Part shown: positions 1-44,030 of the stretch, in pieces
Numbering within the stretch: position 1 is the stretch's first letter
How the letters are laid out: the number at the start of each line of letters is the position of its first letter
Assembly (NCBI GenBank): GCA_019429005.1
Contig: JAHYJR010000001.1
Span: 200,663 to 264,662, forward strand
Reading direction: 5' to 3'
Length of the DNA: 64,000 nucleotides
Source of the DNA: Nanobdellati archaeon
GTDB taxonomy: Archaea; EX4484-52; GLR71
The notes under the pieces: generated by a model
Told to the model about the DNA's origin: nothing
The model's database searches: none
Seen by the model: only the letters and a program-made list of their open reading frames with translations
Program-made: the position numbers and the translations under genes

Positions 1-181
1 AATATTTGTTAAATATTTGTGCTAACTCTCACAAAAATATGCTAGTTTTTAGGGTATTTTTTAACAGATTAGCACGCTTGCTAACGTTTTATATCTAATA
101 CTGTATTTTTATTATTTTTTTGTCTGTTTTTTTATTTGTGTGAGACCAAACCTTTATTTAAACTGCGTTCTAAGATTATGT

Positions 182-1192
182 ATGGTATTTAAGCATCTTG
201 TCTTTTGGATTTCAGGAATTTTTGGAACTTCAAGGCCTGTGGTATACAAGGATGAGCTTGATGCTATTGTTGAAACTGTTGTGGGTGGGTTTTCAAAGAT
301 TAATTTACGTATTTCTCAAAGTGATAATGAACTTAGTCTTTTGAGACAATCTGTGCTTCAGACACAACAAATACCAATTAGTGTGAATCTTCCTCAATTA
401 GATAGCCTTATTATGGGTTATTCTACGATTTCAGAACGTGTTCATGTTGTTGAGTCTAATAAAGATGTTATTAGTAATAAATTATTTATTTTAGAATCGA
501 CGCTCTCGTCTCGTATTGATTCTATTGTGTCTCAAAAACTAGAATCTATGGGCTCTAGTACCATTTCCGGTTCTTTAACAACACCTCAAATACTTGAATC
601 TTTGCGTGCTCTAGAATCTTCTGTAAATCATATTAAATCTGAGTTAGTTACACGTTCAACTGTTGAATCTAACAACGTTACAACACCTAACAACAACGTT
701 ACAACAGCAAATAACAATGTTACAACACCTAACAACAACGTTACAACACCTAATAACAACGTTACAACACCTAATAACAATGTTACAACACCTAATAAGA
801 ACGTTACAACAGCAAATATGTCGTTTGATGATGATTTGACTGCACAAGACGATGTTTATGGGGGTTCCGTTGACTTTGGTCAGGGTGTACAAAACGTGTC
901 TGGGCCAAAAGCTTTTGGTTTTAAACCTACTCGTACGGTTGTCACTTCGCGTAATATGAATAAAGTACTTGTTTCATCCTTAATACCTGTTTTTAATGAG
1001 CTTTTAAATGCTGAGAAATTTTTATCTTACTCTGAATTGTCTAAACGTCTAAATAAAAAAGAAGCAACGGCAAGAGCTTATGTTAATGCTTTGAAAACTT
1101 ATGGTGTTTCTATTGATGAACAGACTGTTTCTAACGGGCGTAAGCTTGTAAGGCTTGCAAAGGATGTTGTGCGTAAATATCTTATTCCTTAA
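182..1192 (+). CDS. Coiled-coil plus C-terminal winged-helix DNA-binding protein with internal 7x heptapeptide repeat (NNNVTTP)
   Basis: ORF track gives 140..1192; ATG at 182 follows a TATA-like TTTATTTA near 153-160. C-terminus LSYSELSKRLNKKEATARAYVNALKTYGVSI...GRKLVRL has an HTH-plus-wing pattern; the central region is helical/coiled-coil-like. Confidence 0.75.
   Translation: MVFKHLVFWISGIFGTSRPVVYKDELDAIVETVVGGFSKINLRISQSDNELSLLRQSVLQTQQIPISVNLPQLDSLIMGYSTISERVHVVESNKDVISNKLFILESTLSSRIDSIVSQKLESMGSSTISGSLTTPQILESLRALESSVNHIKSELVTRSTVESNNVTTPNNNVTTANNNVTTPNNNVTTPNNNVTTPNNNVTTPNKNVTTANMSFDDDLTAQDDVYGGSVDFGQGVQNVSGPKAFGFKPTRTVVTSRNMNKVLVSSLIPVFNELLNAEKFLSYSELSKRLNKKEATARAYVNALKTYGVSIDEQTVSNGRKLVRLAKDVVRKYLIP
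668..814 (+). repeat. Intragenic tandem repeat, 7 x 21 bp (consensus AAyAACAAyGTTACAACAsCw)
   Basis: Seven units read directly; the GTTACAACA core is invariant in all seven. Confidence 0.97.
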
Positions 1193-1211
1193 GATGTAAT
1201 TCTTTATAGTT

Positions 1212-1341
1212 CCTGCTGTTATAACAGCAGGTTGTTATTCAATAACATTGTTATAACATTGTTATAACACTATTTAATCAATATCTATAGTCTTATTTAA
1301 TTATCTATACTGTTATAACACAGAATAACATTGTTATAACA
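1212..1341. repeat. Array of palindromic TGTTATAACA sites (1217, 1249, 1260, 1311, 1332), including a perfect 20-bp palindrome CCTGCTGTTATAACAGCAGG
   Basis: Read directly. The 18-mer AATAACATTGTTATAACA is present identically at 1241 and 1324. Confidence 0.93.
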
Positions 1342-1403
1342 GCTATAGAGACTACTGTTTTATATATCTTTCAACGTGTTTTTCATTAGTTAGGGGTTTA
1401 TTA

Positions 1404-1455
1404 GTCACTGAAGCTTCATTGAACTTTTTTTTGAATTCACTGAAACTTCACTGCA
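1404..1455. repeat. Four phased copies of the TTCAcTGAA pseudo-palindrome (1404, 1415, 1436, 1447)
   Basis: gtcactgaa, ttcattgaa, ttcactgaa, ttcactgca; spacings 11, 21 and 11 bp. Confidence 0.8.
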
Positions 1456-3054
1456 CTATAAAACTAAAATATGTTTTTTGTGTGTGGGTGTTTTTATCGT
1501 TTTATAATCTTTTTGTTTTGCGTTTCCCTCTATTTCTATTGTTTTTTTCTGTTTTTTTGATCTGTTAGAATCTTTGGGTTTGTGTATGTGTGTGTGTGTA
1601 TGTGTTTGGATTTTGTTATTTGTGTTATTTTGGGTGGTGTCTATTAGTCTATGTTCTGTTATAATTTTCTACAAAAATAACCACTTTTTGTGAGGGTTAA
1701 ACTTTTGTTTATTTATGTTGTTTGAATTTAGCTTTCTTATGGTCTTTATTGGCTCTTTTAGGTCTCCGTTTGTCTCGATTGTGGCATTTATTTTGTTTAA
1801 CTCTATATTATTTAGTATTTCTTTGTCTTTTGCCCCCCCCCTTTAGTATTCTCATTTGATTTCGTTTATTTTTCATTTAGATTTCAGGATCTTTTGTTTT
1901 CATTTTTTTTTGTCTATTTTTTTCAATTACTATCAATTTTCAGAATATTTGTTTTTATCTCTATTTTTGGCTTTTTTTTGTTATAACTCTCACATTTATA
2001 TCTTATTTTATCCTAATTTGGGTTTATTTCCTGTTTTTATCTAATTTAAGCCTTTATCTGTAATCTAAATCTATCTCTATTGTTGTATTTTCGTTGTGTT
2101 TAAGTCTTTTTAGAAAAAAATAGTTACTTTTGTTCCTTAGTTATCCTTTAGTCTGACACATCTTAACGTTTATCATGTATATCTTAGCGTTTAGTACTTT
2201 GTTTTTGTATTCCTGGTATCTGTCTCTTATTGTTCTGCGTTTCTATTATATCTCTTGAATTCTGCTCTATATAGTACGTATTTTTTAATCGTATTATATT
2301 GCTATATTTACTGTATTTACTCTATATTGCTAGTGGTTTTTATGCTCTTTTTATTGTTTATTTTTGTATCCTTATTTAATCTTGCTAGCACACTCTTTGG
2401 GGGTATATTTGTTTAACACAGATTTTTTATTTTACTATTTTTTTATTTTGCAGACTTTATTCACACATTTCACATTTTATTTAAATAGCTTCTGAATCTC
2501 TTTCAAATTAGACCTTAACTCTCACATTTAGTGGCTCATTTTATTTGTCTTTCTTTTTGAATTTGGGGTTTTTAAGTGTTTATTGTGCTGTTTTAACGCA
2601 CTTTATACTATTTAGATTTTATTGTATTCTGCTGGTTTTTTAAAATGCTTTATATCTTTATAACACACCCGTTTTTAGGTTTTTTCCTTTCAAATGTGTA
2701 TATGCCTACTGTTAAGCTCTATTTCTGTTAAATTAGATCTTGTCCTATTATATTTAGATTGTCTTATAGTTTCATAGTTTTGATATATCTTTTAAATACT
2801 ACATATTATAAAACTCAATTTATACCAATAGACAAGCATATCTTTATATTGCTATATCACTAAATAAATGGTTGTTTTATTGTCTATTGTGCTTAATAAT
2901 ACAGCTTATTTGGAGACAATAGCCCAAAATATGCAATCTTAGGCAAGAACTTAGTTATTTTGGCCTTTTCACGGCACAAAAATTCACAATTTTTTCATAT
3001 TAGGTTTCTTTTAACTCTCTCTTTTTTTATTTTTTAAAATTCAGAACTTAGGCA

Positions 3055-3456
3055 CTAGGGTGTATCAGATTCTGTATTATAGTTATATTTCTTTGCGCTA
3101 AACGCTTTTACTGCAAGCACTATGCTTTCAAAGAAACGTTCACATCTGTTTGATAGTTTATAATAATCACGTTCTTTTGTTTCTATTAGACCTATGCCAA
3201 TAAGTTTGTTTATCATGCTGTAATATGTTGTTTTGGATATATTGTGTTCCTTACAATATATATCCCAATTGGACCTATCAAAAACACCATTATTACCTTT
3301 TTGTCTTAGTTCTTTTAGGAATGTATAGGCATGATCTGGCAGCATTACATTTTTTGAACCTCTATATAACAGGCTCATAAGGCTTTCAAAATCAGGGGTT
3401 TCAAGCGGTTTTACAGATATTGTCGTGTGGTATCTTCTAGGTTTTTTTGTATCCAT
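3055..3456 (-). CDS. Winged-helix domain protein of unknown function
   Basis: NWDIYCKEHNISKTTYYSMINKLIGIGLIETKERDYYKLS is an HTH plus wing; a GTGAT SD-like motif precedes ATG 3456. Confidence 0.75.
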   Translation of the reverse strand: MDTKKPRRYHTTISVKPLETPDFESLMSLLYRGSKNVMLPDHAYTFLKELRQKGNNGVFDRSNWDIYCKEHNISKTTYYSMINKLIGIGLIETKERDYYKLSNRCERFFESIVLAVKAFSAKKYNYNTESDTP

Positions 3457-3791
3457 AATCAATCACATTGATTTTTTGTTTTTTCTTGTTTTTATGTATT
3501 CCTATATTATGTAGAATGGATTGGTTTTATTTTTGTCTAGAAAAAATACACCATTCTGATATGTATCTGAATACACAACACTCGTACAAAACCCCCTTGA
3601 TTACTAGCCTAAACATGGCAAAAATAGCGAAGCTAGTATGTTTAGTTTAGTTATATTAGAATAATGTAGTGTTACTAAGGTATATACAAATAAAAGTATA
3701 ATGATATAGTAAGATATTTTATATCTTATATATTAGACTATCTAAATACATATATATCTATATTACAATGTATATACTGTACAATGTATAA

Positions 3792-3960
3792 GTTAGGCAC
3801 CAATATTGTTTTTGTTAGGCACTAAAAAGTAGGGTTGTTAGGCACTATTTTTGTTTTTTTAGGTTATAAAATTCATTTAGATAATACGTATTTTTGTATG
3901 CTATCTGTAATTTAATGTGTATTGTTTATGTATGTTTGAATAATATGTAGTTAGGCACTA
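3792..3960 (+). repeat. Iteron-like direct repeats GTTAGGCAC(TA) at 3792, 3814, 3837 and 3950
   Basis: Read directly; spacings 22 and 23 bp. Further copies at 3048 and 10834. Adjacent to a very AT-rich stretch at about 3680-3790. Confidence 0.88.
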
Positions 3961-4041
3961 GACAGGTTCTTATTTAGCCCTTTTAATCAAAATTTAAGAA
4001 AAAACAGACTTTTTAGGCTAAAAATAAACAAAAAAACGATA

Positions 4042-4326
4042 TCACTTAAGCTTTTTCATCACTTTTTCAAAATCTTTAGCATATTCAGAACCTTTTTCAG
4101 TCAGTTTTATGTATTTTATACGACCTACTTTTTCAAAAGAAACAATACCTTTTTTCATGAAAAGCTCAAGTATCTTTACTGTATGTGAATATGTGCAATC
4201 TGTTATTTTTGCAAGTGTTGATGCATATACACTTTCATTCTTAATACGTAATGCTAATAGTATTTGAACGGGTTTTGCGTGTAAAAAGAGATCACATAAT
4301 TCTTCATTTTCTTTAACCATATTCAA
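4042..4326 (-). CDS. Small winged-helix (MarR/ArsR-like) DNA-binding protein
   Basis: VYASTLAKITDCTYSHTVKILELFMKKGIVSFEKVGRIKYIKLTEKG is a typical wHTH. Confidence 0.85.
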   Translation of the reverse strand: MNMVKENEELCDLFLHAKPVQILLALRIKNESVYASTLAKITDCTYSHTVKILELFMKKGIVSFEKVGRIKYIKLTEKGSEYAKDFEKVMKKLK

Positions 4327-4436
4327 ACCACCATTAGATAATTGTTAGTATTCTTACTATAAATATCTTTTTGATTTGATGTATATATACCTGCTGTTAA
4401 ATATATATTGTTGTACAGTTGTTCGGCAATTGACTT

Positions 4437-4877
4437 TTAATCAATATAATGCGAATCCAATTCCTTTGTTTTAACATTTGGTAGTTGGAATGGTGGTGGA
4501 AGATTAATCTGTGTTGCATTTATAAGTGCTGTTACAGATGCTTTTGCAAGAATGTTATTAAGTATAGGGATTATTATTTTTTTATCGATTTTTTTATCTG
4601 TTGTCCAGGTTTTAATAATATCTTCTGTTCCTTTTTCATATATAACACGTCCTCTTATTTTAATACCTGCAATTTCGCTATCATCTAATATATATGTTGT
4701 TATATGTTCAAAAAAGACAATAGCATTATATTCATTTATTGTGCTTTTAGAATTAGTATCTTTCTTTATAATTGGTTTGACATCAACAATATTAGCATGA
4801 CTATTAATTTTTATGTTGCCTTTGATATCTCTTTTTTTCCCACAATTTATGCTATCTATGAATGTTTTTAGGATCAT
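4437..4877 (-). CDS. Conserved archaeal hypothetical protein, SecB-like fold suspected
   Basis: Beta-strands, a long helix and C-terminal NLPPPFQLPNV resemble SecB-like proteins; ATGA overlap with the upstream ORF. Confidence 0.6.
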   Translation of the reverse strand: MILKTFIDSINCGKKRDIKGNIKINSHANIVDVKPIIKKDTNSKSTINEYNAIVFFEHITTYILDDSEIAGIKIRGRVIYEKGTEDIIKTWTTDKKIDKKIIIPILNNILAKASVTALINATQINLPPPFQLPNVKTKELDSHYID

Positions 4878-5056
4878 TGTGTATCTACCTTTGATTTTTT
4901 ATTTTTTTCAATCTCTTGAACAACCTTTGCCATATCAAAGCTGCCACGTTTTCCAAGGTATCTAATGACTTTCTGTTTGGATGTTTTGTTTTCCCACGTG
5001 TTCTCTACAAGATACCAATACTCATGACCTTTTATAATTTTTTTTCTAATAAACAT
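4874..5056 (-). CDS. 60-aa basic protein resembling the N-terminal module of IS1634-type transposases
   Basis: MFIRKKIIKGHEYWYLVENTWENKTSKQKVIRYLGK pattern; no catalytic DDE domain follows. Confidence 0.6.
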   Translation of the reverse strand: MFIRKKIIKGHEYWYLVENTWENKTSKQKVIRYLGKRGSFDMAKVVQEIEKNKKSKVDTQ

Positions 5057-5105
5057 TGGGGGTCTATATCTCCAATATACTTTATATTTTAGATTATTGC
5101 CTATT

Positions 5106-5333
5106 TTAGATAATTGCGTGGTATTTCAGTATGACAAATGCGATATATATTATCAATGTGAACATAAACACAAGTTCAATAATTTCTGAAATATTAAGTT
5201 CATTTAGACTTTTTTGAATCTTATTTTGCGTTTTTTCAACTTTTTTAACACTTTTGATTATTTCTACAGCCTTTGGCTTAGTTGTTTTTACAACGTTATT
5301 TTTTGTAGTTTTTGCAGTTTTTTTAACAGCCAT
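5106..5333 (-). CDS. Small Lys-rich protein with C-terminal TM helix
   Basis: ORF preceded by a GGTG SD; hydrophobic C-terminus. Confidence 0.65.
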   Translation of the reverse strand: MAVKKTAKTTKNNVVKTTKPKAVEIIKSVKKVEKTQNKIQKSLNELNISEIIELVFMFTLIIYIAFVILKYHAII

Positions 5334-5410
5334 GTAAACACCAATTCTATTTAGATTTTATCTGTATTTAAGTTTATCTCTATTATTGTTTTTTAGAAAA
5401 AAAGGATTAT

Positions 5411-5436
5411 GGAACTATTAAACTAAAAATAGTTCC
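5411..5436 (-). terminator. Hairpin GGAACTATT...AATAGTTCC downstream of 5438..6106
   Basis: Inverted repeat followed by a T-run on the minus strand. Confidence 0.5.
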
Positions 5437-5437
5437 T

Positions 5438-6106
5438 TTATTTTTTAAGTGATTCTTTTATCATACTAATTAATGTTTTATCTAGTTTTTGAGGTTTACC
5501 AAGTACAGAACCATATATTTTGTCAAGTTCTTTATATTTTTCATCACAAATGTCTATAATTGTGGTAAGTGTTTCAACATAAGTCTTTAACGTTCTCCCA
5601 TTATGTTTGTTATTTATATTTTTTTGAAATTCTGTTGTGTTTGCGAGTATACCCATAAGCATATTTTTTGCAATGAATTTACGTGATTCTAAAAGGTATA
5701 CGGTTTTATCAACGTATTCATCAATATTTTTTATAACAACATCTTTATCTTCATAATGCTCGTTTAGAGTTTCTACAACGTGTGTTTTTATGTTATTTAC
5801 TGAATCATATATTTGATCTAAAGTCCATAATGTTTTATATTTGTTAGATTCTTGTTTTCCTGTCGCATTTAAACAACTATAATCAATTACACTATCACTC
5901 GCATCAAGACCTTCCTTTTGATATGCTTTTGCGACATTATTACTATATGTAGAACTTTCTTGTGGTCTATTATCAAGATATGTTTCAACACTTTTATCAG
6001 TAATTTTTTTGATGGCTCGCTCTTTATGCCCTTCAATGTAACCAACTGACATTAATACTGCTGAAACAACTGTCAATATAGAGATAGTTAATGTAATAAT
6101 TTCCAT
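5438..6106 (-). CDS. Hypothetical protein with N-terminal membrane anchor
   Basis: 222-aa ORF with hydrophobic N-terminus and helical remainder. Confidence 0.7.
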   Translation of the reverse strand: MEIITLTISILTVVSAVLMSVGYIEGHKERAIKKITDKSVETYLDNRPQESSTYSNNVAKAYQKEGLDASDSVIDYSCLNATGKQESNKYKTLWTLDQIYDSVNNIKTHVVETLNEHYEDKDVVIKNIDEYVDKTVYLLESRKFIAKNMLMGILANTTEFQKNINNKHNGRTLKTYVETLTTIIDICDEKYKELDKIYGSVLGKPQKLDKTLISMIKESLKK

Positions 6107-6209
6107 TTAATCCACAGTATAAAATTAGTATTTAGTAGTTTATATATTTTATAGGTGATTTGAACTTGAAATATCATATATTTATCTTTAAATCTTTTAG
6201 AAAAAGGAA

Positions 6210-6282
6210 TAGTCCCGCCAGGATTCGAACCTGGGTCTAGAGATCCAGAGTCTCTTATGCTTGGCCTCTACATTACGGGACT
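6210..6282 (-). tRNA. tRNA-Gln(CTG)
   Basis: Minus strand AGTCCCG...AGAGA-CT-CTG-GA-TCTCT...CCAGG-TTCGAAT-CCTGG-CGGGACT-A; A1-U72 is typical of archaeal tRNA-Gln. Confidence 0.96.
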
Positions 6283-6325
6283 TTAGTACGGTAGTTTTAT
6301 TTACTATAAAAAGTATTAAATAAGT

Positions 6326-7159
6326 ATGGTTATGATTCAAAAATCTGATGGCGTTGTTGAAGCTCTTGATATTAAAAAAACAAGACATAGTTGTATTCGC
6401 GCAGGTGCAACAGAACAGATGGCTGATGAGATTATGAAGGTTGTTTTATCAAAAATAAATGATGGTGATAGTACAAAAAAAATAAGGACTATAATATATG
6501 ATGAATTACATAAGCGTGAAGATACTTTAGCGCATAGGTATGATCTTAAATATGCACTTTCTAGGCTTGACCCTACAACAAGTCAATTTGAGAAATACAT
6601 AACTAGACTTTTTTCTTATTTCGGTTATGAGACAAAGCATAGTCCCGTACCCAAACCTATGGGTCATTGCACAGATCACGAAATTGATGTATTTATGAAA
6701 AATTCTGAAGGTATAAAATTCATAGAATGTAAGCATCATTTTCATTATTATCGTGATACCGGTCTTGATGTGCCAATGCGTGTCTGGGCTAGACTTCAAG
6801 ATCTTCAAGATGGTTTTAAAAGCGGTCGTAAAAATTCATTTAATTTTAAAGGCGCATGGGTCATCACAAACACAAAATTATCAGGGTATGCAATAAGGTA
6901 TGCAACTTGTAAGAAAATAGAATATCTGGCCTGGAATCAACCTAAAGGTAATGGTTTGAATGATTACATTGAAAAAGTGAAGGCCTATCCGTTAACCATA
7001 GTACCTTTGAATGATTATGATCGTGTGAAACTTGCTGCTGAAAACATAATAGATATTAAGGATTTTGTTGCAGCCGACCCTGATAAATTATTAAAATCGG
7101 GTATATCAAACGCGAAATCAGAGAAAGTACGTCGTTTTATATATAAATTGACAGAGTGA
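6326..7159 (+). CDS. ATP-cone plus Mrr-like PD-(D/E)xK restriction endonuclease domain protein
   Basis: N-terminal VMIQKSDGVVEALDIKK ATP-cone pattern; FEKYITRLF...HEIDV...IECKH nuclease motif. Confidence 0.8.
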   Translation: MVMIQKSDGVVEALDIKKTRHSCIRAGATEQMADEIMKVVLSKINDGDSTKKIRTIIYDELHKREDTLAHRYDLKYALSRLDPTTSQFEKYITRLFSYFGYETKHSPVPKPMGHCTDHEIDVFMKNSEGIKFIECKHHFHYYRDTGLDVPMRVWARLQDLQDGFKSGRKNSFNFKGAWVITNTKLSGYAIRYATCKKIEYLAWNQPKGNGLNDYIEKVKAYPLTIVPLNDYDRVKLAAENIIDIKDFVAADPDKLLKSGISNAKSEKVRRFIYKLTE

Positions 7160-10867: not shown

Positions 10868-11410
10868 CTAATTTTTAACAAATTTTTCAAAGATATCTTT
10901 ATTTTTAACTTCAGGATGGAACATAAGGCCATAGATATCTTTTGTTTTATGTTTTATAGCATGGACACAATTCTTTGATTCCGCTAAAATATCAAAGTTT
11001 GTTGAGGGTATTACTGAATAACTATGAAGGCTGTATGCATTAAATTTTCCAGAAAACAAAGAATTTTTCTTTTTTGTATTAACTTCAACAAGACCAATTT
11101 CTGTGCAAGGCTTAAGGGTTGAGCCAAATACGAGCGCGATAATTTCCATACCTGCACAGATTCCAAGCATAGGTTTATCGTAATTGGTTATCCAACTGAA
11201 TTTATCAATATCATCAATAAATCTGTTATCTTTAAGATTTGCTCCAGATAGAATTATTTTATCTGTTTTATCTATATCTTTGTCCTTTATTTCAGAATAC
11301 TGTAGGACCCTAAAATCCGTTTTATCTTTTATTACAGACACAATAGGCTGAATAAATTCATAAGCTTCTAAAGAATCTTTTTTATGGTTCATATCAACAA
11401 TCAATATCAT
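10868..11410 (-). CDS. Class I glutamine amidotransferase (GMP synthase A-like)
   Basis: IILSG, LGICAGME nucleophile elbow and FHPE triad motifs. Confidence 0.9.
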   Translation of the reverse strand: MILIVDMNHKKDSLEAYEFIQPIVSVIKDKTDFRVLQYSEIKDKDIDKTDKIILSGANLKDNRFIDDIDKFSWITNYDKPMLGICAGMEIIALVFGSTLKPCTEIGLVEVNTKKKNSLFSGKFNAYSLHSYSVIPSTNFDILAESKNCVHAIKHKTKDIYGLMFHPEVKNKDIFEKFVKN

Positions 11411-12087
11411 TTATCAACCAGCTCCACAGATTTGATTATGAATATGCCCGAATTGTCTTTTGCGTTTTTTTCAAAGTCTGTAAGTACTATTCGTTTCTTG
11501 AAGAACGGTGCATCAAGAACGGTGGTCTCAAGTTCACCACCTTCACCTGCAGGATTTATTTCATATTTGGCTTGTAATACAACAAGCTTTGCTATAATAT
11601 TTTTATCTATTTTTTGCCCTAGCCAACTTTCGTCTAGAGGATATGCAAAGATACCAGAAATAATTATATTGTATTTATTTTCAACAAGTTCATTTAGAAG
11701 TTCTACCTGATCTTTCATCCAGAGCGGATTTATGCATTTCAAGTTTAACTTATCACATATAATCTCTATCCTTTTTGATTGATAAACAGATTGTATTGTG
11801 CCAGTTACGATTCCATTTAACTTGTATATTTTTTTTGCTTTTTTTATCGCATTCTCAAGATCTTCTAGTTCTTTTTCTTTTATACCTTCAGTTTCGACTT
11901 TTAAAAGTGGGATACCTATTGCTTCAGCTTGAAGGTCTGTAATATGGATGTTTGGCGTATGAAACATATAGCTTTCCTTATTTTTTGAGACAATTGCTAT
12001 AAGACATACTACTGTTTCTTTTTTCATAGCTATATCTAACGCATATGTTGAATCCTTGCCACCTGAAAACAGAACACCGAGTTTCAT
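11407..12087 (-). CDS. dph6: Diphthine--ammonia ligase (Dph6, PP-loop ATPase)
   Basis: LFSGGKDS, SYMFH, NPAGEGGELET...DAPFF motifs. Confidence 0.9.
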   Translation of the reverse strand: MKLGVLFSGGKDSTYALDIAMKKETVVCLIAIVSKNKESYMFHTPNIHITDLQAEAIGIPLLKVETEGIKEKELEDLENAIKKAKKIYKLNGIVTGTIQSVYQSKRIEIICDKLNLKCINPLWMKDQVELLNELVENKYNIIISGIFAYPLDESWLGQKIDKNIIAKLVVLQAKYEINPAGEGGELETTVLDAPFFKKRIVLTDFEKNAKDNSGIFIIKSVELVDK

Positions 12088-12192
12088 AAGATAATAATTG
12101 ATAGGCAATCATTTAATCTTTTTTGTTAATGTTGCTCAGTTTGGTTTAGAAATGAACTCTTAGAAAAAAATTGTTAAAAAAAAATAAAATAA

Positions 12193-12216
12193 AGATGACA
12201 AACAAAGTTGTCATCT
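12193..12216 (-). terminator. Hairpin plus T-tract after the ribosomal stalk operon
   Basis: AGATGACAA-N6-TTGTCATCT followed by a long T-run on the minus strand. Confidence 0.7.
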
Positions 12217-12228
12217 AAAGTGATGTAT

Positions 12229-12519
12229 TTAACCGAAAAGTGCTCCAAGTCCAGCTGCTGCTTCTTCAGGTTTCTTTTCTTCTACTTTAGCTTCTACTTT
12301 AGCTTCAGCCACAGGTGCTGCTGCTGTAGGTGCTGCTGTAGCGACTGCTGAAGTTTTAATAGCATCTTCTATATCAACACTTTCAAGTGCTGCTACAAGA
12401 GCTTTAATTCTAGAATCGTCTGCTTTTACACCAGCTGCGTCAAGAACTTTCTTAACTGCTGCTTCATCAACTTTATTTCCAGATGCATGTAATAACATTG
12501 CTGCGTATATATATTCCAT
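12229..12519 (-). CDS. rpl12: 50S ribosomal protein L12 (aP1)
   Basis: [11 protein letters not shown]...[10 protein letters not shown]. Confidence 0.98.
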
Positions 12520-12575
12520 TTATTTCTCCTCCTTTTTTAAATTATCTTATAATTATTCTTTGGTTGAATATGTTT

Positions 12576-13544
12576 TTAACCGAAAAGTGCTCCAAGACCT
12601 ACTGTTACATCTTCAGGTTTATCTTCTTCGTGTTTTTCTTCTTTTTTCTCTTCAATTTTTGCTTCTTCAATTGGTGCTGCCGTTGCAATTTGTATACCAC
12701 CCCTTGCATCATCAGGCAATCTTGACGATACAGACATCATCTGTGCATATGCTTTCGGTATAATTGATTTGATTGTTTCTTTATTTAAAACACCTGAATT
12801 TATAGCAAGATTTAATGTATCTGTGTGTGCTTTTCCAATCAGAAGTGCTATTACATCTTTAGTTGGGTATGCTGCATTAAATGCAAGATTAAATGACCAT
12901 TTGTAAGCATTTTGTATGTTTGTTCTATATTCAGCTTGATTAATATCGAGCGTATCTTTCATGAATATGATTCCATCTTCATAAGCTGCAACAAGGTTAA
13001 GGCTAATCATAACTGGTTTGATTCCAAGTTGCATTAATATGCTAGCAAGTGATGATGAAATCTCGTCTCCTTCGCTTGCGACTTTTGAATCTTCAGTTAT
13101 TGTTATTATAGGCCCTTGTATTCTTGCTTTAATTTTTGCCTTTTGAAGTTCACCTATTATAGGACCTGGTGTCAGTTTTGTATCTCCTTTTGGAATCACT
13201 AATTCTTTAGGTGCTTTTTCTCCAGCTTTTAAGTATGTTGCGACTTTACTTTTATTTATTTTTTGAAATAATTTGAAAGGGTTTTCATTACTTAATATTA
13301 TACCTGGATTTTCTATGTTTAGTTTGTTTAATTCAGCTATATTATCTTTTTTAACACCCCCAATAGATCTTGTAAGTATACATTTTTTTGCGATTTTTAT
13401 ATCTGCTGTACCTCGAAGTTCTTGTCGTATCATGTGTAACTGTGCAGCTGGTAATTTATGCAGATCAACCATACCAATAATCTTATGATTAGATATAGCT
13501 TTCTTAATCTTTTCAGTTTCTTTGATTTTCCATTCTTGTACCAT
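12576..13544 (-). CDS. rpl10: 50S ribosomal protein L10 (aP0)
   Basis: N-terminal EWK, NPFKLF and C-terminal GLGALFG; operon position. Confidence 0.97.
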   Translation of the reverse strand: MVQEWKIKETEKIKKAISNHKIIGMVDLHKLPAAQLHMIRQELRGTADIKIAKKCILTRSIGGVKKDNIAELNKLNIENPGIILSNENPFKLFQKINKSKVATYLKAGEKAPKELVIPKGDTKLTPGPIIGELQKAKIKARIQGPIITITEDSKVASEGDEISSSLASILMQLGIKPVMISLNLVAAYEDGIIFMKDTLDINQAEYRTNIQNAYKWSFNLAFNAAYPTKDVIALLIGKAHTDTLNLAINSGVLNKETIKSIIPKAYAQMMSVSSRLPDDARGGIQIATAAPIEEAKIEEKKEEKHEEDKPEDVTVGLGALFG

Positions 13545-13558
13545 TTAGCTCAATCCCT

Positions 13559-14203
13559 TTAATATTTAGATACGTCTATTTTTGCCGCATTGCTCATAGT
13601 TAATTTTAAATAAATTGATTTTATGTTATGTTCTTGCGACGGTAATTTATTTTTAACTACATTTATAACAGCTTTTGCATTTTCTTCAAGATCTTTGTTG
13701 TCCATGCTTTCACTTCCAATTTGGCAGTGTATTACAGGTGCTTTATCTGTTACATTTACGACTATTGTATTTTTTAATTTATTAATCATAGCTGCTGGAT
13801 CTGCTTGTGGTGGCATTGGTCTAGGCATTTTACCCATTGGACTCATGTATTTACCAAAGCTTTTACCTATATTTGCCATAAGCTGTGGTTCTGCGATAAA
13901 GAAATCAATTTCTCTTACAAGTTTCTTAATTGCTGTTTTATCTTTTTTATATTTATCAAGACTTTTTTCATCAATTGTTATATCAGCGATACCTTTTGCT
14001 TTTGAAATTAGTTCAGTTCCTATAACACAGATTTTTGCAGGTTTACTTCTTCCTTTTGGAAGTAAGACATCTTCTCTAAATCTGTTTTCAACTTTTTTAA
14101 AGTCCATGCCTTTAAGATTTATTGCAAGGTCTACAGATTGTATGAAATTTCTTTCTTTTTTATTCTTTTTCAAGTTTTCAATAATCTTGTTTATTTCACT
14201 CAT
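13559..14203 (-). CDS. rpl1: 50S ribosomal protein L1
   Basis: RNFIQSVDLAINLK, GKMP, KLTM motifs. Confidence 0.97.
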   Translation of the reverse strand: MSEINKIIENLKKNKKERNFIQSVDLAINLKGMDFKKVENRFREDVLLPKGRSKPAKICVIGTELISKAKGIADITIDEKSLDKYKKDKTAIKKLVREIDFFIAEPQLMANIGKSFGKYMSPMGKMPRPMPPQADPAAMINKLKNTIVVNVTDKAPVIHCQIGSESMDNKDLEENAKAVINVVKNKLPSQEHNIKSIYLKLTMSNAAKIDVSKY

Positions 14204-41545: not shown

Positions 41546-43075
41546 ATGTCAGTAAAGAAAAAAGACAATAAATTTCAAGAACAGTTTATATCATTCTTAC
41601 AACAGAAAGGTTTTATCTGGGGTCCTGAACCTGAATTATATGGGGGTCTTGCAGGTTTCTATACATATGCACCACTTGGAAAACGTCTGAAAAATAATGT
41701 TGAAAATCGTATTCGTTCAGTCTTCCAAAAAAATGATATGTGGGAAGTTGAATGTCCGACAATTATGCAGAAAGAGGTTTGGCAAGCATCAGGACATTTA
41801 GATAATTTTACAGATCCTTTGGTTGCTTGTTCAAAATGTAATGCTTCATTTCGTGCTGATAAACTTATAGAAGAGAAATACGATGACGTTGTTGCAGATG
41901 CATTTAGCGAAAAAGAACTTCTTGATTTTATAAATGATAAAAAAATAAAATGTCCTGTTTGTGGTTCTCAATTTATTCAAGAGATTAAGCAACATAATCT
42001 GATGATGAAAACCACAATCGGCACAAAAATTGAAGCATATAACCGACCAGAAACTGCTACAACAACATATCTTCCATTTATTCGTTATGTAGATTATTTT
42101 AGGAAAAAAATACCCTTTGGTGTTTTCCAGATCGGAAAAGCTTATCGAAACGAGATTTCACCAAGACAGCATGTGCTTCGGATGCGCGAATTTACGCAAG
42201 CTGAAGGTCAGATGTTTATCTTTAAAGAGCAGAAAAATAATTTTGAAAGGTATGATTTAATTAAAGAGTCAAAATTACCTCTTTGGTCACACCAATTACA
42301 AGACACTTCGAAAGAACCTAAAATGATATCAGTTTCAGATGCAATGAAAAAAGGTTATCTAAAGAATCAGGCATATGCATGGTCTGTTAATTTAGCATAT
42401 ACACTTTTTAGAGAAATCGGAATTCCTGAAGAATATATAAGGCTTCGTCAGCATACGCCTGGAGAGTTAGCATTTTATGCAGATGATGCATGGGATCTTG
42501 AGATTAAGACAAACAGTTTTGGTTGGGTTGAATGTTGTGGTATTCATGATAGAACTGATTATGATTTAACTCAACATGCAAAAGCATCAGGTAAAAAGTT
42601 AGAAGCTTTAGATGAGAATAATGAAAAGACAGTTCCAAATATTCTTGAGATTGCTTTTGGAACAGACCGACCTGTATTTGCTCTTCTTGATATAACATAT
42701 AATCAAGCAGAGGATCGGACTGTATTATTTGTACCTTATAATCTTGCACCAATACAAGTTGCAGTATTACCACTTGTAAAGAGAGATGGTCTTGACACAA
42801 TTGCAAAAGAGTTGTTCAATAAATTGAACGGTAAATTCATTGCATATTATGATGAGGGTGGTTCTGTTGGTCGGCGTTATGCAAGGATGGATGAGAAAGG
42901 TACTCCTTATATAATTACAACAGATACTGATACACTTACAGATAATAGTGTCACAATTCGTGATCGTAATTCAACAAAGCAAATAAGAATCCAGCTTGAA
43001 GATGTGCCTGATGTTCTTGATAATTTGTTTTCTAGTAAGAAACAATTTGAAGATTTAGGTAAAATTATAGAGTGA
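41546..43075 (+). CDS. glyS: Glycine--tRNA ligase (alpha2 type)
   Basis: YGGLAGFYTYAPLG, RPETA, YRNEISPRQ..LRMREFTQAE and GRRYARMDE. Confidence 0.96.
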   Translation: MSVKKKDNKFQEQFISFLQQKGFIWGPEPELYGGLAGFYTYAPLGKRLKNNVENRIRSVFQKNDMWEVECPTIMQKEVWQASGHLDNFTDPLVACSKCNASFRADKLIEEKYDDVVADAFSEKELLDFINDKKIKCPVCGSQFIQEIKQHNLMMKTTIGTKIEAYNRPETATTTYLPFIRYVDYFRKKIPFGVFQIGKAYRNEISPRQHVLRMREFTQAEGQMFIFKEQKNNFERYDLIKESKLPLWSHQLQDTSKEPKMISVSDAMKKGYLKNQAYAWSVNLAYTLFREIGIPEEYIRLRQHTPGELAFYADDAWDLEIKTNSFGWVECCGIHDRTDYDLTQHAKASGKKLEALDENNEKTVPNILEIAFGTDRPVFALLDITYNQAEDRTVLFVPYNLAPIQVAVLPLVKRDGLDTIAKELFNKLNGKFIAYYDEGGSVGRRYARMDEKGTPYIITTDTDTLTDNSVTIRDRNSTKQIRIQLEDVPDVLDNLFSSKKQFEDLGKIIE

Positions 43076-43079
43076 ATTT

Positions 43080-43576
43080 ATGCAATCAATACGTTTAAGA
43101 TATCAAGAAGTTGAAGATGCAGAACGTTTTTTGAGATTATAACTAAATAAGATTTCAAATATCAAATTATACCTGTAAAGACTGTTGAAGATGAGATTGA
43201 TTTTTTAAAGCTTAATGATGAAAAGCGAAAAAATAATTTTGAATATAATTATTCAATAATGTATGACGATATTCTTGTAGGTAGTTGCGGTATTAAGATT
43301 GATCAACATAATACTCATATTTGTAGTTTAGGTTTTTTTGTTGACGAAAACTATTGGGGTAAAGGTATTGCAACATATGTTGTACCTCTACTTGAGCATA
43401 TTTGTTTTGAAGAGTTGGGCATTAAACGAATTGAAATAAGGATGTATGTTGAAAATAAAGTAAGTGAGAAAGTTGCAATAAAGTGTGGTTATACGCAATA
43501 ATGTGTGATGAAAAAAGCAATAAAACTTGGAAATGAGTTTGTTGATGCTTATCTTTATGCTAAGGTTAAGGTGTGA
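43080..43576 (+). pseudogene. RimJ/RimL-type GNAT acetyltransferase pseudogene
   Basis: MQSIRLRYQEVEDAERF, frameshift near 43130-43150, ...YWGKGIAT...NKVSEKVAIKCGYTQ*CVMKKAIKLGNEFVDAYLYAKVKV; internal TAA at 43499-43501. Confidence 0.85.
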
Positions 43577-43693
43577 TTATATCTAATTTTTGAAGATGTT
43601 TTTATTCCGTTTCTCTGTTTTTGTTATACTTGATTGTTTCATACACCTATTTTTTTAAAATCTTAAGTGACTATTTTACGAAAAATATATATG

Positions 43694-44030
<337 letters not shown>

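Follow-up and report, generated by a model that had tools for sequence, protein, structure and literature searches.

The locus described here lies at the start of a 64,000-nucleotide (nt) stretch of DNA from the archaeal genome G000 (Nanobdellati archaeon, GenBank assembly GCA_019429005.1, contig JAHYJR010000001.1, hereafter G000:C11, positions 200663-264662), a stretch to which we refer as the window. It consists of three open reading frames (ORFs) for winged-helix proteins, ORF1, ORF2 and ORF3, interleaved with arrays of short repeats, and an earlier note made from the letters alone had taken it for an origin- or centromere-like element. Comparison with related genomes pointed elsewhere, indicating that the locus is very probably a family-specific elaboration of the xerA-dif neighbourhood, that is, of the surroundings of a XerA-like recombinase gene and its dif site, from which the recombination core is missing in G000; the basis is synteny together with absences that were tested. 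We also consider it probable, though with less assurance, that the locus acts as a family-specific architectural module around dif, organised by the ORF1 protein, which has lost its recombination core here. Both statements build on what is established: the synteny, the conserved arrangement of the elements in sequence and direction, the presence of dif in the relatives, the absence of the core here, and a skew that gives no origin or terminus signal.

A xerA-dif module in related genomes

The comparison set comprised 42 genomes of the order, namely 10 of family f1 (G000 included) and 32 from seven other families; all assemblies are fragmented metagenome-assembled genomes, and genes were called by longest-ORF heuristics. 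G000 is a 1.08-Mb assembly of 15 contigs with ~29.5% GC and a completeness of 93.6%, placed among the DPANN archaea by the source names on homologous proteins. Three motifs are referred to by letter: A stands for GTTRYAAC palindromes, B for TAACTCTCACA and C for RGTGCCTAAY (RTTAGGCACY when inverted). The number of motif copies due to chance was estimated from 100 shuffles in the window and from a reversed-motif control in genome-wide counts.

All four relatives with contigs spanning the region, G001 and the three members of genus g3 within f1 (G002, G003 and G006), kept one layout, which runs from a C array through ORF1, A palindromes, a B-bearing T-skewed spacer, a convergent XerA-like recombinase gene, dif and a palindrome to an inverted C array. 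In addition, G005 had the same parts in the same order, split over two contigs. The left C array consisted of 4-5 plus-strand copies in the three g3 genomes and of a single copy inside an upstream ORF in G001. Located 3′ of ORF1 in the relatives were 2-5 GTTRYAAC palindromes, followed by a T-skewed spacer of 861-1296 nt with 2-3 copies of TAACTCTCACA, the last of which abuts the stop codon of the recombinase gene. The recombinase itself has 280-304 amino acids (aa) and matched Pfam Phage_integrase with an E value of 8.8e-41. On the right side of the module one more palindrome was followed by 2-4 inverted RTTAGGCACY copies. Within g3 the motif blocks of the spacer were kept and the repeat number of the palindromes varied, while across five genomes the spacer measured 861-1862 nt with an AT skew of -0.36 to -0.44.

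The module sequences were searched for dif as 11-bp inverted arms separated by a spacer of 4-8 bp. The results showed one conserved dif ~70 nt upstream of the recombinase start, which in G002 reads ATGTCGCATAA-TATACA-TTATGCGACAC (11-6-11); arms of 11 bp around a 6-bp spacer are the form described for dif (PMC2958812). Its core, CGCATAA-N6-TTATGCG, occurred exactly once and free of mismatches in 11 of the 42 genomes of the order (families f1, f2, f3 and f7), where the reversed control gave no hit. The distance between dif and xerA was 7-10 kb in f2 and f3, and across the other six families dif lay in ORF-free gaps of 372-1689 nt at four of the six loci examined. A further gap near xerA was seen in G010:C1 (L062:8545-9288), where a 744-nt ORF-free stretch ~3.3 kb from the gene holds AGCAGCTAA and TCCCGTTAAC recurring about every 131 nt.

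The recombination core is missing from G000

In G001 the elements follow one another as ORF1 (plus strand), the XerA-like gene (minus strand), dif, two copies of TTAGGCAC, ORF3 (minus strand), ORF5 and ORF8, which matches G000 except that ORF2 there replaces the recombinase gene and dif. G000 had no match to PF00589, of which 36 of the 42 genomes have one, and no tblastn match to the G002 recombinase. Nor did its assembly contain a dif core at up to one mismatch, the best genome-wide match agreeing at 16 of 20 specified positions. ORF2 was looked for in five other f1 genomes and turned up in none of them. The features of the locus in G000 are as follows (positions in the window).

1-181: divergent promoter region between an upstream 390-aa ORF (minus strand) and ORF1
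140/182-1192, plus strand: ORF1, 336 aa from 182
670-818, plus strand: coding repeat within ORF1, 21-nt unit, ~7 copies (NNVTTP)
1193-3054: ORF-free stretch of 1862 nt between the convergent ORF1 and ORF2 (the spacer)
1212-1341: array A, a perfect 20-bp palindrome CCTGCTGTTATAACAGCAGG at 1212-1231 and five TGTTATAACA (1217, 1249, 1260, 1311, 1332)
1689-1698, 1984, 2516 and 3003: spacer motifs, being an inverted AACCCTCACA (1689-1698), TAACTCTCACA (1984 and 2516) and a degenerate TTAACTCTCTC (3003)
3048-3055, plus strand: single TTAGGCAC, abutting the ORF2 stop codon
3055-3462, minus strand: ORF2, 135 aa
3463-4041: ORF-free stretch of 579 nt
3463-3700, minus strand: ORF2 5′ region, 69% mean column identity with six ORF2 loci of family f6 (L018-L023)
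3650-3790: stretch rich in AT and TA steps, 17.7% GC, at the junction of the ORF2 cassette and the C array
3792-3958, plus strand: array C, four GTTAGGCAC(Y) at 3792, 3814, 3837 and 3950
4042-4326, minus strand: ORF3, 94 aa
4437-5333, minus strand: ORF4 (146 aa), ORF5 (60 aa) and ORF6 (75 aa), small proteins accompanying ORF3
6210-6282: tRNA-Gln gene, the sole tRNA found, followed by ORF8, an ATP-cone protein (plus strand)

Non-coding DNA and repeat arrays

The two ORF-free stretches sum to 2441 nt (1862 nt plus 579 nt), in agreement with the ~2.4 kb of non-coding DNA first noticed, and the longer one is the fourth longest of 848 ORF-free gaps in G000, where the median gap is 97.5 nt. Four motif families had been reported in this DNA, three of which proved to lie far beyond chance. 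TGTTATAACA has five copies in the window, all within 1217-1341, against 0.24 expected (none of 100 shuffles reached five), and these make up half of its ten genome copies. Likewise, GTTAGGCAC has five window copies against 0.14 expected, and the four at 3792-3958 represent all but one of the copies in the genome (4/5). For TAACTCTCACA there were three window copies (23, 1984 and 2516) against 0.08 expected, out of five in the genome. The fourth family, TTCAnTGAA, was at chance level, with three window copies against 4.2 expected and 79 of 100 shuffles reaching three; locally it is a two-copy repeat of ~17 nt, at ~1399 and ~1437, that was not seen in the relatives' loci. The proposed phasing of 11 or 21-23 bp applied to some intervals only and the rest were irregular, with spacings of 32, 11, 51 and 21 for TGTTATAACA, of 22, 23 and 113 for GTTAGGCAC, and of 1961 and 532 nt for the TAACTCTCACA copies. 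As for the AT-rich stretch at 3680-3790, its low GC content was confirmed (16.2%), but 3.0% of 111-nt windows in the genome are equally or more AT-rich. The slightly longer stretch from 3650 lies about where the relatives carry the xerA promoter and dif.

Array A is kept as GTTRYAAC sites 3′ of ORF1 in four relatives, and array C corresponds to the right-hand inverted array of the family module, its minus strand reading RGTGCCTAAY and pointing to ORF2. At the left end, the promoter region 1-181 carries one TAACTCTCACA at 23-33 and C-like words in degenerate form only (GTGCTAAC at 19-26 and TTAGCAC at 69-75); its counterpart in the g3 genomes holds 4-5 C-motif copies. The spacer between ORF1 and ORF2 is strongly T-skewed, with an AT skew of -0.36 that ranks 4th among 187 intergenic gaps of at least 250 nt, and has 31 runs of five or more T on the ORF1 sense strand versus 3 such runs of A. 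Apart from the motifs its sequence is not conserved: when 40 relatives were searched at the DNA level, the matches were confined to the three genes (ORF1, ORF2 and ORF3) and to T-rich stretches of low complexity, and a search against the genome itself returned short, weak matches only. A possible second copy of the locus on contig C8 was rejected, since the motif matches there are scattered among housekeeping genes, two of them inside a coding ORF. The matches in question are four AACTCTCACA on one strand within 2.3 kb (G000:C8:115294-117567; L002 ~11295-13568), and the ORF that holds two of them, of 330 aa, looked by eye like a methyltransferase.

ORF1 and the C motif share one distribution

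ORF1 starts more plausibly at 182 (M15) than at 140. The N-terminus of the protein is short and hydrophobic and is followed by long coiled-coil helices (residues ~37-180 as numbered in a 350-aa model), after which a disordered linker of NNVTT(P) repeats leads to a winged helix at the C-terminus. This C-terminal domain was modelled with a predicted local distance difference test score (pLDDT) of ~90, and its best Foldseek matches were MarR, ArsR and AbfR2 (best E 1.6e-3). With ORF2 and ORF3, for which the matches are given below, all three genes were thus winged-helix by fold or profile matches, as had first been supposed. The NNVTT peptide repeats of ORF1 are kept across family f1, and the DNA that encodes them (AAYAAYGTTACAACA) resembles a half-site of the downstream palindromes; from this likeness, the coding repeat and the binding-site array may have a common origin. 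Homologues of ORF1, in single copy each, were present in 7 of the 10 f1 genomes (G000 included) and in none of the 32 genomes from the seven other families. A wider scan of genome contigs returned the same four loci plus one weak match, and a metagenome search returned none. ORF1 divergence, at 28-67% identity, was like that of the core genes GatE (52%) and RNase HII (60%).

The C motif followed the same boundary: 216 sites versus 42 in the control were counted in the ten f1 genomes, and 43 versus 99 in the other 32, so that C-motif enrichment and ORF1 share one distribution, that of family f1. In G002, 18 of the 23 C sites outside the module contig fell inside ORFs, in either orientation (crude ORF calls). 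G000 has seven C sites left, five of them in the locus. On four G002 contigs, the C sites were noticed post hoc to lie on one strand per contig (C16, 4/4; C19, 4/4; C14, 2/2; C17, 2/2), and they tended to form loose clusters a few kb apart. The B motif, on the other hand, was spread order-wide, with 119 sites versus 22 in the control and occurrences in 36 of the 42 genomes. B-type motifs lay 163-870 nt from dif in G011 and G023, and the 11-mer often stood in same-strand pairs 0.3-1.3 kb apart, near dif.

These observations suggest how the module might work. The arrays would be bound by ORF1 or by some other factor confined to family f1. ORF1 would then coat both flanks of dif and some 20-25 further chromosomal sites, creating an architectural domain or a roadblock around dif. 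The mirror-symmetric nesting round dif, the intragenic position of the dispersed sites, the long conserved spacer and the pairing of ORF1 with the C motif all argue for such an architectural role. In G000 the recombinase gene and dif would have been replaced by ORF2 with its conserved 5′ region, and what persists after loss of the core is ORF1 together with the array of palindromes, the spacer and the C array on the right. Because the arrays stay perfect here without xerA and dif, the architectural role may be at least partly independent of recombination. Genes for an SMC hinge protein and for ScpA were present in G000.

ORF2, ORF3 and the flanking genes

ORF2 occupies the slot that the XerA-like recombinase has in the relatives. 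Its winged-helix core (residues 19-99) aligned to winged-helix domains at a middling Z of 6.9; Foldseek gave nothing below E 0.9 and a sequence-profile search of the PDB gave no match. The protein is a member of the archaeal 'AF_0843' family (Pfam PF27297), to which no function is assigned; a literature search returned no paper mentioning PF27297, and the listed matches for AF0843 and AF1382 were unrelated by title. Copies 64-68% identical were found in family f6, where they too adjoin ORF3-ORF4 and where the B motif directly adjoins the stop codon of ORF2, as it does that of xerA in f1. ORF2 carries along ~240 nt of conserved 5′ DNA, which includes a palindrome ATTC-N11-GGAAT at 3498-3517. 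As an observation in its own right, this leader or operator is unusually conserved across two families, with up to three ATTC-N10-11-GGAAT palindromes. An RNA structure in this region was considered and rejected, the consensus energy being just -6.5 kcal/mol, and the region was not read as RNA because the predicted pairs join DNA palindromes.

ORF3 scored 22.7 bits with Pfam HTH_27 (cut-off 22.2), and its profile matched the solved winged-helix-turn-helix (wHTH) protein AF_1382 at 9.4e-11 and, more weakly though over nearly the full length, the centromere-binding protein AspA (E 3.8e-4). It stood near the XerA-like gene at five of eight loci outside g3, those of G001 (f1), G012 (f4), G015 (f7), and G023 and G011 (f3), with one or two small ORFs between the two genes in G012 and G015 (crude ORF calls). 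It was absent from the 8-10 kb fetched around the Xer loci of G010, G017 and G013. Homologues of ORF4 were found in the loci of seven relatives and those of ORF5 and ORF6 in G002 only; none of the three had a family match.

The region that precedes the window holds an operon resembling those for type IV pili, the genes for GatD, an HD protein and GatE, and the 390-aa minus-strand ORF that is divergent from ORF1; the downstream neighbours are AlaRS, a GATase, diphthamide synthase and the ribosomal proteins L10 and L1. The 390-aa ORF (L001:14770-15942, minus strand) sits between GatE and the module and shows KPKYITD-type repeats and an HELVH motif; it matched no Pfam or NCBIfam family, had no homologue in the relatives' loci examined and is specific to G000. 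A scan of 1-6000 with Rfam (E up to 1) gave four chance-level matches, all under the gathering scores. Elsewhere in the window, the most extreme stretch of the composition profile was the 1 kb at 43001-44000, with 18.8% GC and a GC skew of +0.37.

Probable position of the replication origin

The suggestion that the locus is a replication origin was contradicted by the rest of the contig, where orc1/cdc6, an AT-rich tandem repeat and a sharp skew flip all lie 87-92 kb upstream and the skew does not change sign at the locus. The remark that no orc1/cdc6 is visible was correct for the locus itself and not for the contig: the only full match lies 92 kb upstream, at C11:107841-109058. Directly upstream of that gene (G000:C11:109457-109657; L003:3078-3278) a 24-nt unit (~TTATAATCTTTATTTATAATAAAT) is repeated in tandem, in at least six copies, within very AT-rich DNA, and this is likely the oriC of G000.

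Replication skew was separated from coding-strand skew by comparing the GC skew at third codon positions (GC3 skew) of plus- and minus-strand genes. On C11 the replication component was -0.41 to -0.49 over 1-105 kb, and the only sharp flip fell at ~113-115 kb, 5-7 kb from orc1/cdc6. From there the skew was weakly positive to ~165 kb, about -0.1 at 168-182 kb, and positive from ~183 kb to the contig end (~287 kb), with no sign change at C11:200.7-205 kb, where the earlier note had proposed to look for one. At the G002 module, on a 48.5-kb contig, plus-strand GC3 skew was positive for the genes of both strands on both sides. The convergence of genes on the locus that had been noted was seen in both G000 and G002, without an accompanying skew switch. 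Two side observations concern the skew itself, which was lopsided on C11, C4, C10 and C13 (near -0.45 to the left of the origin and only near +0.1 along the right arm), and which on C4 faded gradually from 0 to -0.5 over 100 kb.

Readings as a segregation site or terminus anchor came nearer, the locus being the positional counterpart of xerA-dif and ORF3 matching AspA weakly; against them, no ParA- or SegA-type ATPase was found in a scan of ORFs between -16 kb and +14 kb, in which the pilus-operon ORFs, apart from the T2SSE ATPase, were inspected just by eye. Neither was a helicase, a primase or a Rep family protein found among the neighbouring ORFs scanned. A tempting false positive is thereby removed, as an origin takes more than arrays and wHTH genes beside an AT-rich stretch.

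Alternative explanations

Several observations weigh against an architectural module around dif. The A-tract fraction of the spacer, 0.30, ranks 92nd of 187 gaps and its AT content 124th, both ordinary values, and the dif of the relatives is found next to the long spacer, beyond xerA, and not within it. The C arrays precede ORF1 and xerA and point the same way as the gene that follows, which also fits plain co-regulation, and the orientation of the dispersed C sites in G002 had no consistent relation to the sign of the GC3 skew. Three genera have the module in three different contexts, and in g3 the whole of it was relocated together, which also fits mobility. Given an assembly of 15 contigs at the completeness stated above, xerA and dif could sit on an unassembled piece or belong to a strain variant. 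Finally, the pairs of protein and motif are predictions from sequence.

The alternative that survives best, although we regard it as unlikely, is plain transcriptional wiring, in which the three wHTH proteins are regulators, the arrays are the operators of ORF1, xerA and ORF2, and the spacer is an oligo-T terminator buffer or decayed coding DNA. Archaeal RNA polymerase terminates at oligo-T, so the excess of T runs on the ORF1 sense strand suits this explanation, as do the gene-oriented C arrays upstream of ORF1 and of xerA/ORF2, the conserved palindromes beside a TATA-like element in the ORF2 5′ region and the fold matches to MarR/ArsR-type regulators. However, operators would not account for the 18 of 23 dispersed G002 sites that are intragenic and in either orientation, nor would a terminator buffer explain why 0.9-1.9 kb of spacer is retained in five streamlined genomes, in which gaps have a median below 100 nt. 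No gene remnant turned up in the spacer either, whether in the DNA searches or by tblastn; a decayed recombinase was sought with the G002 enzyme and nothing below E 1.6 was obtained in window positions 1-7000. In addition, the nested symmetric layout round dif exceeds the needs of two operators.

We consider it improbable that the locus is the remnant of an integrated or formerly mobile element, made of a tyrosine recombinase, a DNA-binding protein and inverted subterminal arrays, whose recombinase was lost here. In g3, GatE directly adjoins ORF3 and the whole block from C array to C array is elsewhere; therefore the block moved as one unit at least once, and across the three genera it is found in three contexts. 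The inverted multi-copy arrays at the ends of the module resemble transposon ends, the upstream 390-aa ORF is without a homologue in the relatives' loci examined, and the tRNA-Gln gene is 2 kb off. In contrast, the module is single copy across the family with an ORF1 divergence like that of core genes, the site beside the recombinase is the order-wide unique dif, and closeness of xerA and ORF3 recurs in four families. Integration linked to the tRNA gene was rejected: no 12-mer of the tRNA-Gln gene itself is repeated within -50 kb/+34 kb, the few 12-mer matches lying only in its AT-rich 30-nt flanks, no integrase was found in G000, and replication, packaging or transfer genes are absent.

The third alternative, a non-Orc1 origin or a partition centromere on whose arrays wHTH proteins load machinery beside an unwinding element, is very improbable: the palindrome and direct-site arrays next to wHTH genes, the 16% GC stretch, the nearly full-length AspA match and the copy number of the A repeat, which differs between close relatives, all speak for it, but the skew keeps its sign at the locus and at the G002 module, orc1/cdc6 and its AT-rich repeats stand near the flip 87-92 kb away, no partition ATPase, helicase, primase or Rep was found among the neighbours scanned, the AT-rich stretch is G000-specific and not extreme, and homologous loci hold xerA-dif.

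Comparison with known systems

An architectural module around dif, the reading that we prefer, can be set beside several systems. With Orc1/Cdc6 and iteron origins the locus shares repeats by winged-helix genes and an AT-rich stretch; it differs in lacking an initiator family and a skew switch, and the repeats found belong to motif families other than the origin recognition box (ORB) type, no ORB model having been applied. ORF3 resembles AspA of the pNOB8 AspA-ParB-ParA system in size (94 versus 92-98 aa), in its nearly full-length profile match and in standing beside repeated sites. Unlike AspA, it has no ParB or ParA genes found nearby, is better matched by AF_1382, and has xerA and not a partition operon as its order-wide neighbour.

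Xer modules with an adjacent site include XerS/difSL, and difH is adjacent to xerH. The abstract of PMC3325230 mentions one xerH gene and its cognate dif, and in Haloferax dif lies upstream of the xerA operon (PMC11840125). The relatives' module is like these in its unique 11-6-11 dif, ~70 nt from a single XerA-like gene. It is unlike them, as they are described, in its flanking inverted site arrays, its dedicated coiled-coil wHTH gene and its kb-long skewed spacer, and G000 is without both defining parts.

In Escherichia coli, MatP and its matS palindrome, spread over 800 kb, organise the Ter macrodomain around dif. The module is comparable in its coiled-coil protein with predicted DNA binding, in a short motif with a few tens of copies, many of them intragenic, and in being centred on dif. 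The C motif, unlike matS, is asymmetric and densest in two inverted arrays within 4 kb.

The closest likeness to a described chromosomal boundary is with boundary 1 of Thermococcus kodakarensis, which is a ~1.9-kb intergenic region between convergent genes that contains dif (PMC11840125). There the surrounding sequence forms a boundary even without dif, the winged-helix nucleoid protein TrmBL2 on both sides of dif stalls Smc-ScpAB, and A-tract content correlates with SMC stalling (PMC11840125). The present locus is similar in having a large gap between convergent genes (1.86 kb here) tied to dif and predicted winged-helix binding regions on both sides, with tens of weaker sites elsewhere; SMC and ScpA genes are present here as well. 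Since the boundary of T. kodakarensis works without dif and XerA, such a function would explain, by analogy, why the module persists in G000. The differences are that G000 has no dif or XerA, that dif of the relatives lies beside the spacer, and that A-tracts are not enriched. In ORF1, unlike TrmBL2, the coiled coil precedes the winged helix, and no TrmBL2 match appeared in the searches run, which included none directed at TrmBL2.

Xer recombination control and the organisation of the dif region without FtsK are barely known beyond Thermococcus, Sulfolobus and haloarchaea, and among the literature matches listed we found no paper treating Xer/dif in DPANN archaea. Family f1 offers compact, testable parts in this respect: a unique dif by its recombinase, three conserved motifs in mirror-nested order and a dedicated, predicted DNA-binding protein that has the same distribution as one of these motifs. 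We tentatively raise the possibility that, among DPANN archaea, ORF1 organises the surroundings of dif in a lineage-specific way and is functionally analogous to MatP or TrmBL2. Such a protein would be anchored by its hydrophobic N-terminus and bind the two inverted C arrays bracketing xerA-dif as well as some 20-25 mostly intragenic sites, and would thereby insulate or tether the chromosome-resolution site in cells without FtsK. If this is true, the survival of ORF1 and of perfect arrays without XerA and dif would show a role in architecture apart from dimer resolution. G000, in which nature has deleted the recombination core and left the architecture in place, separates the two functions.

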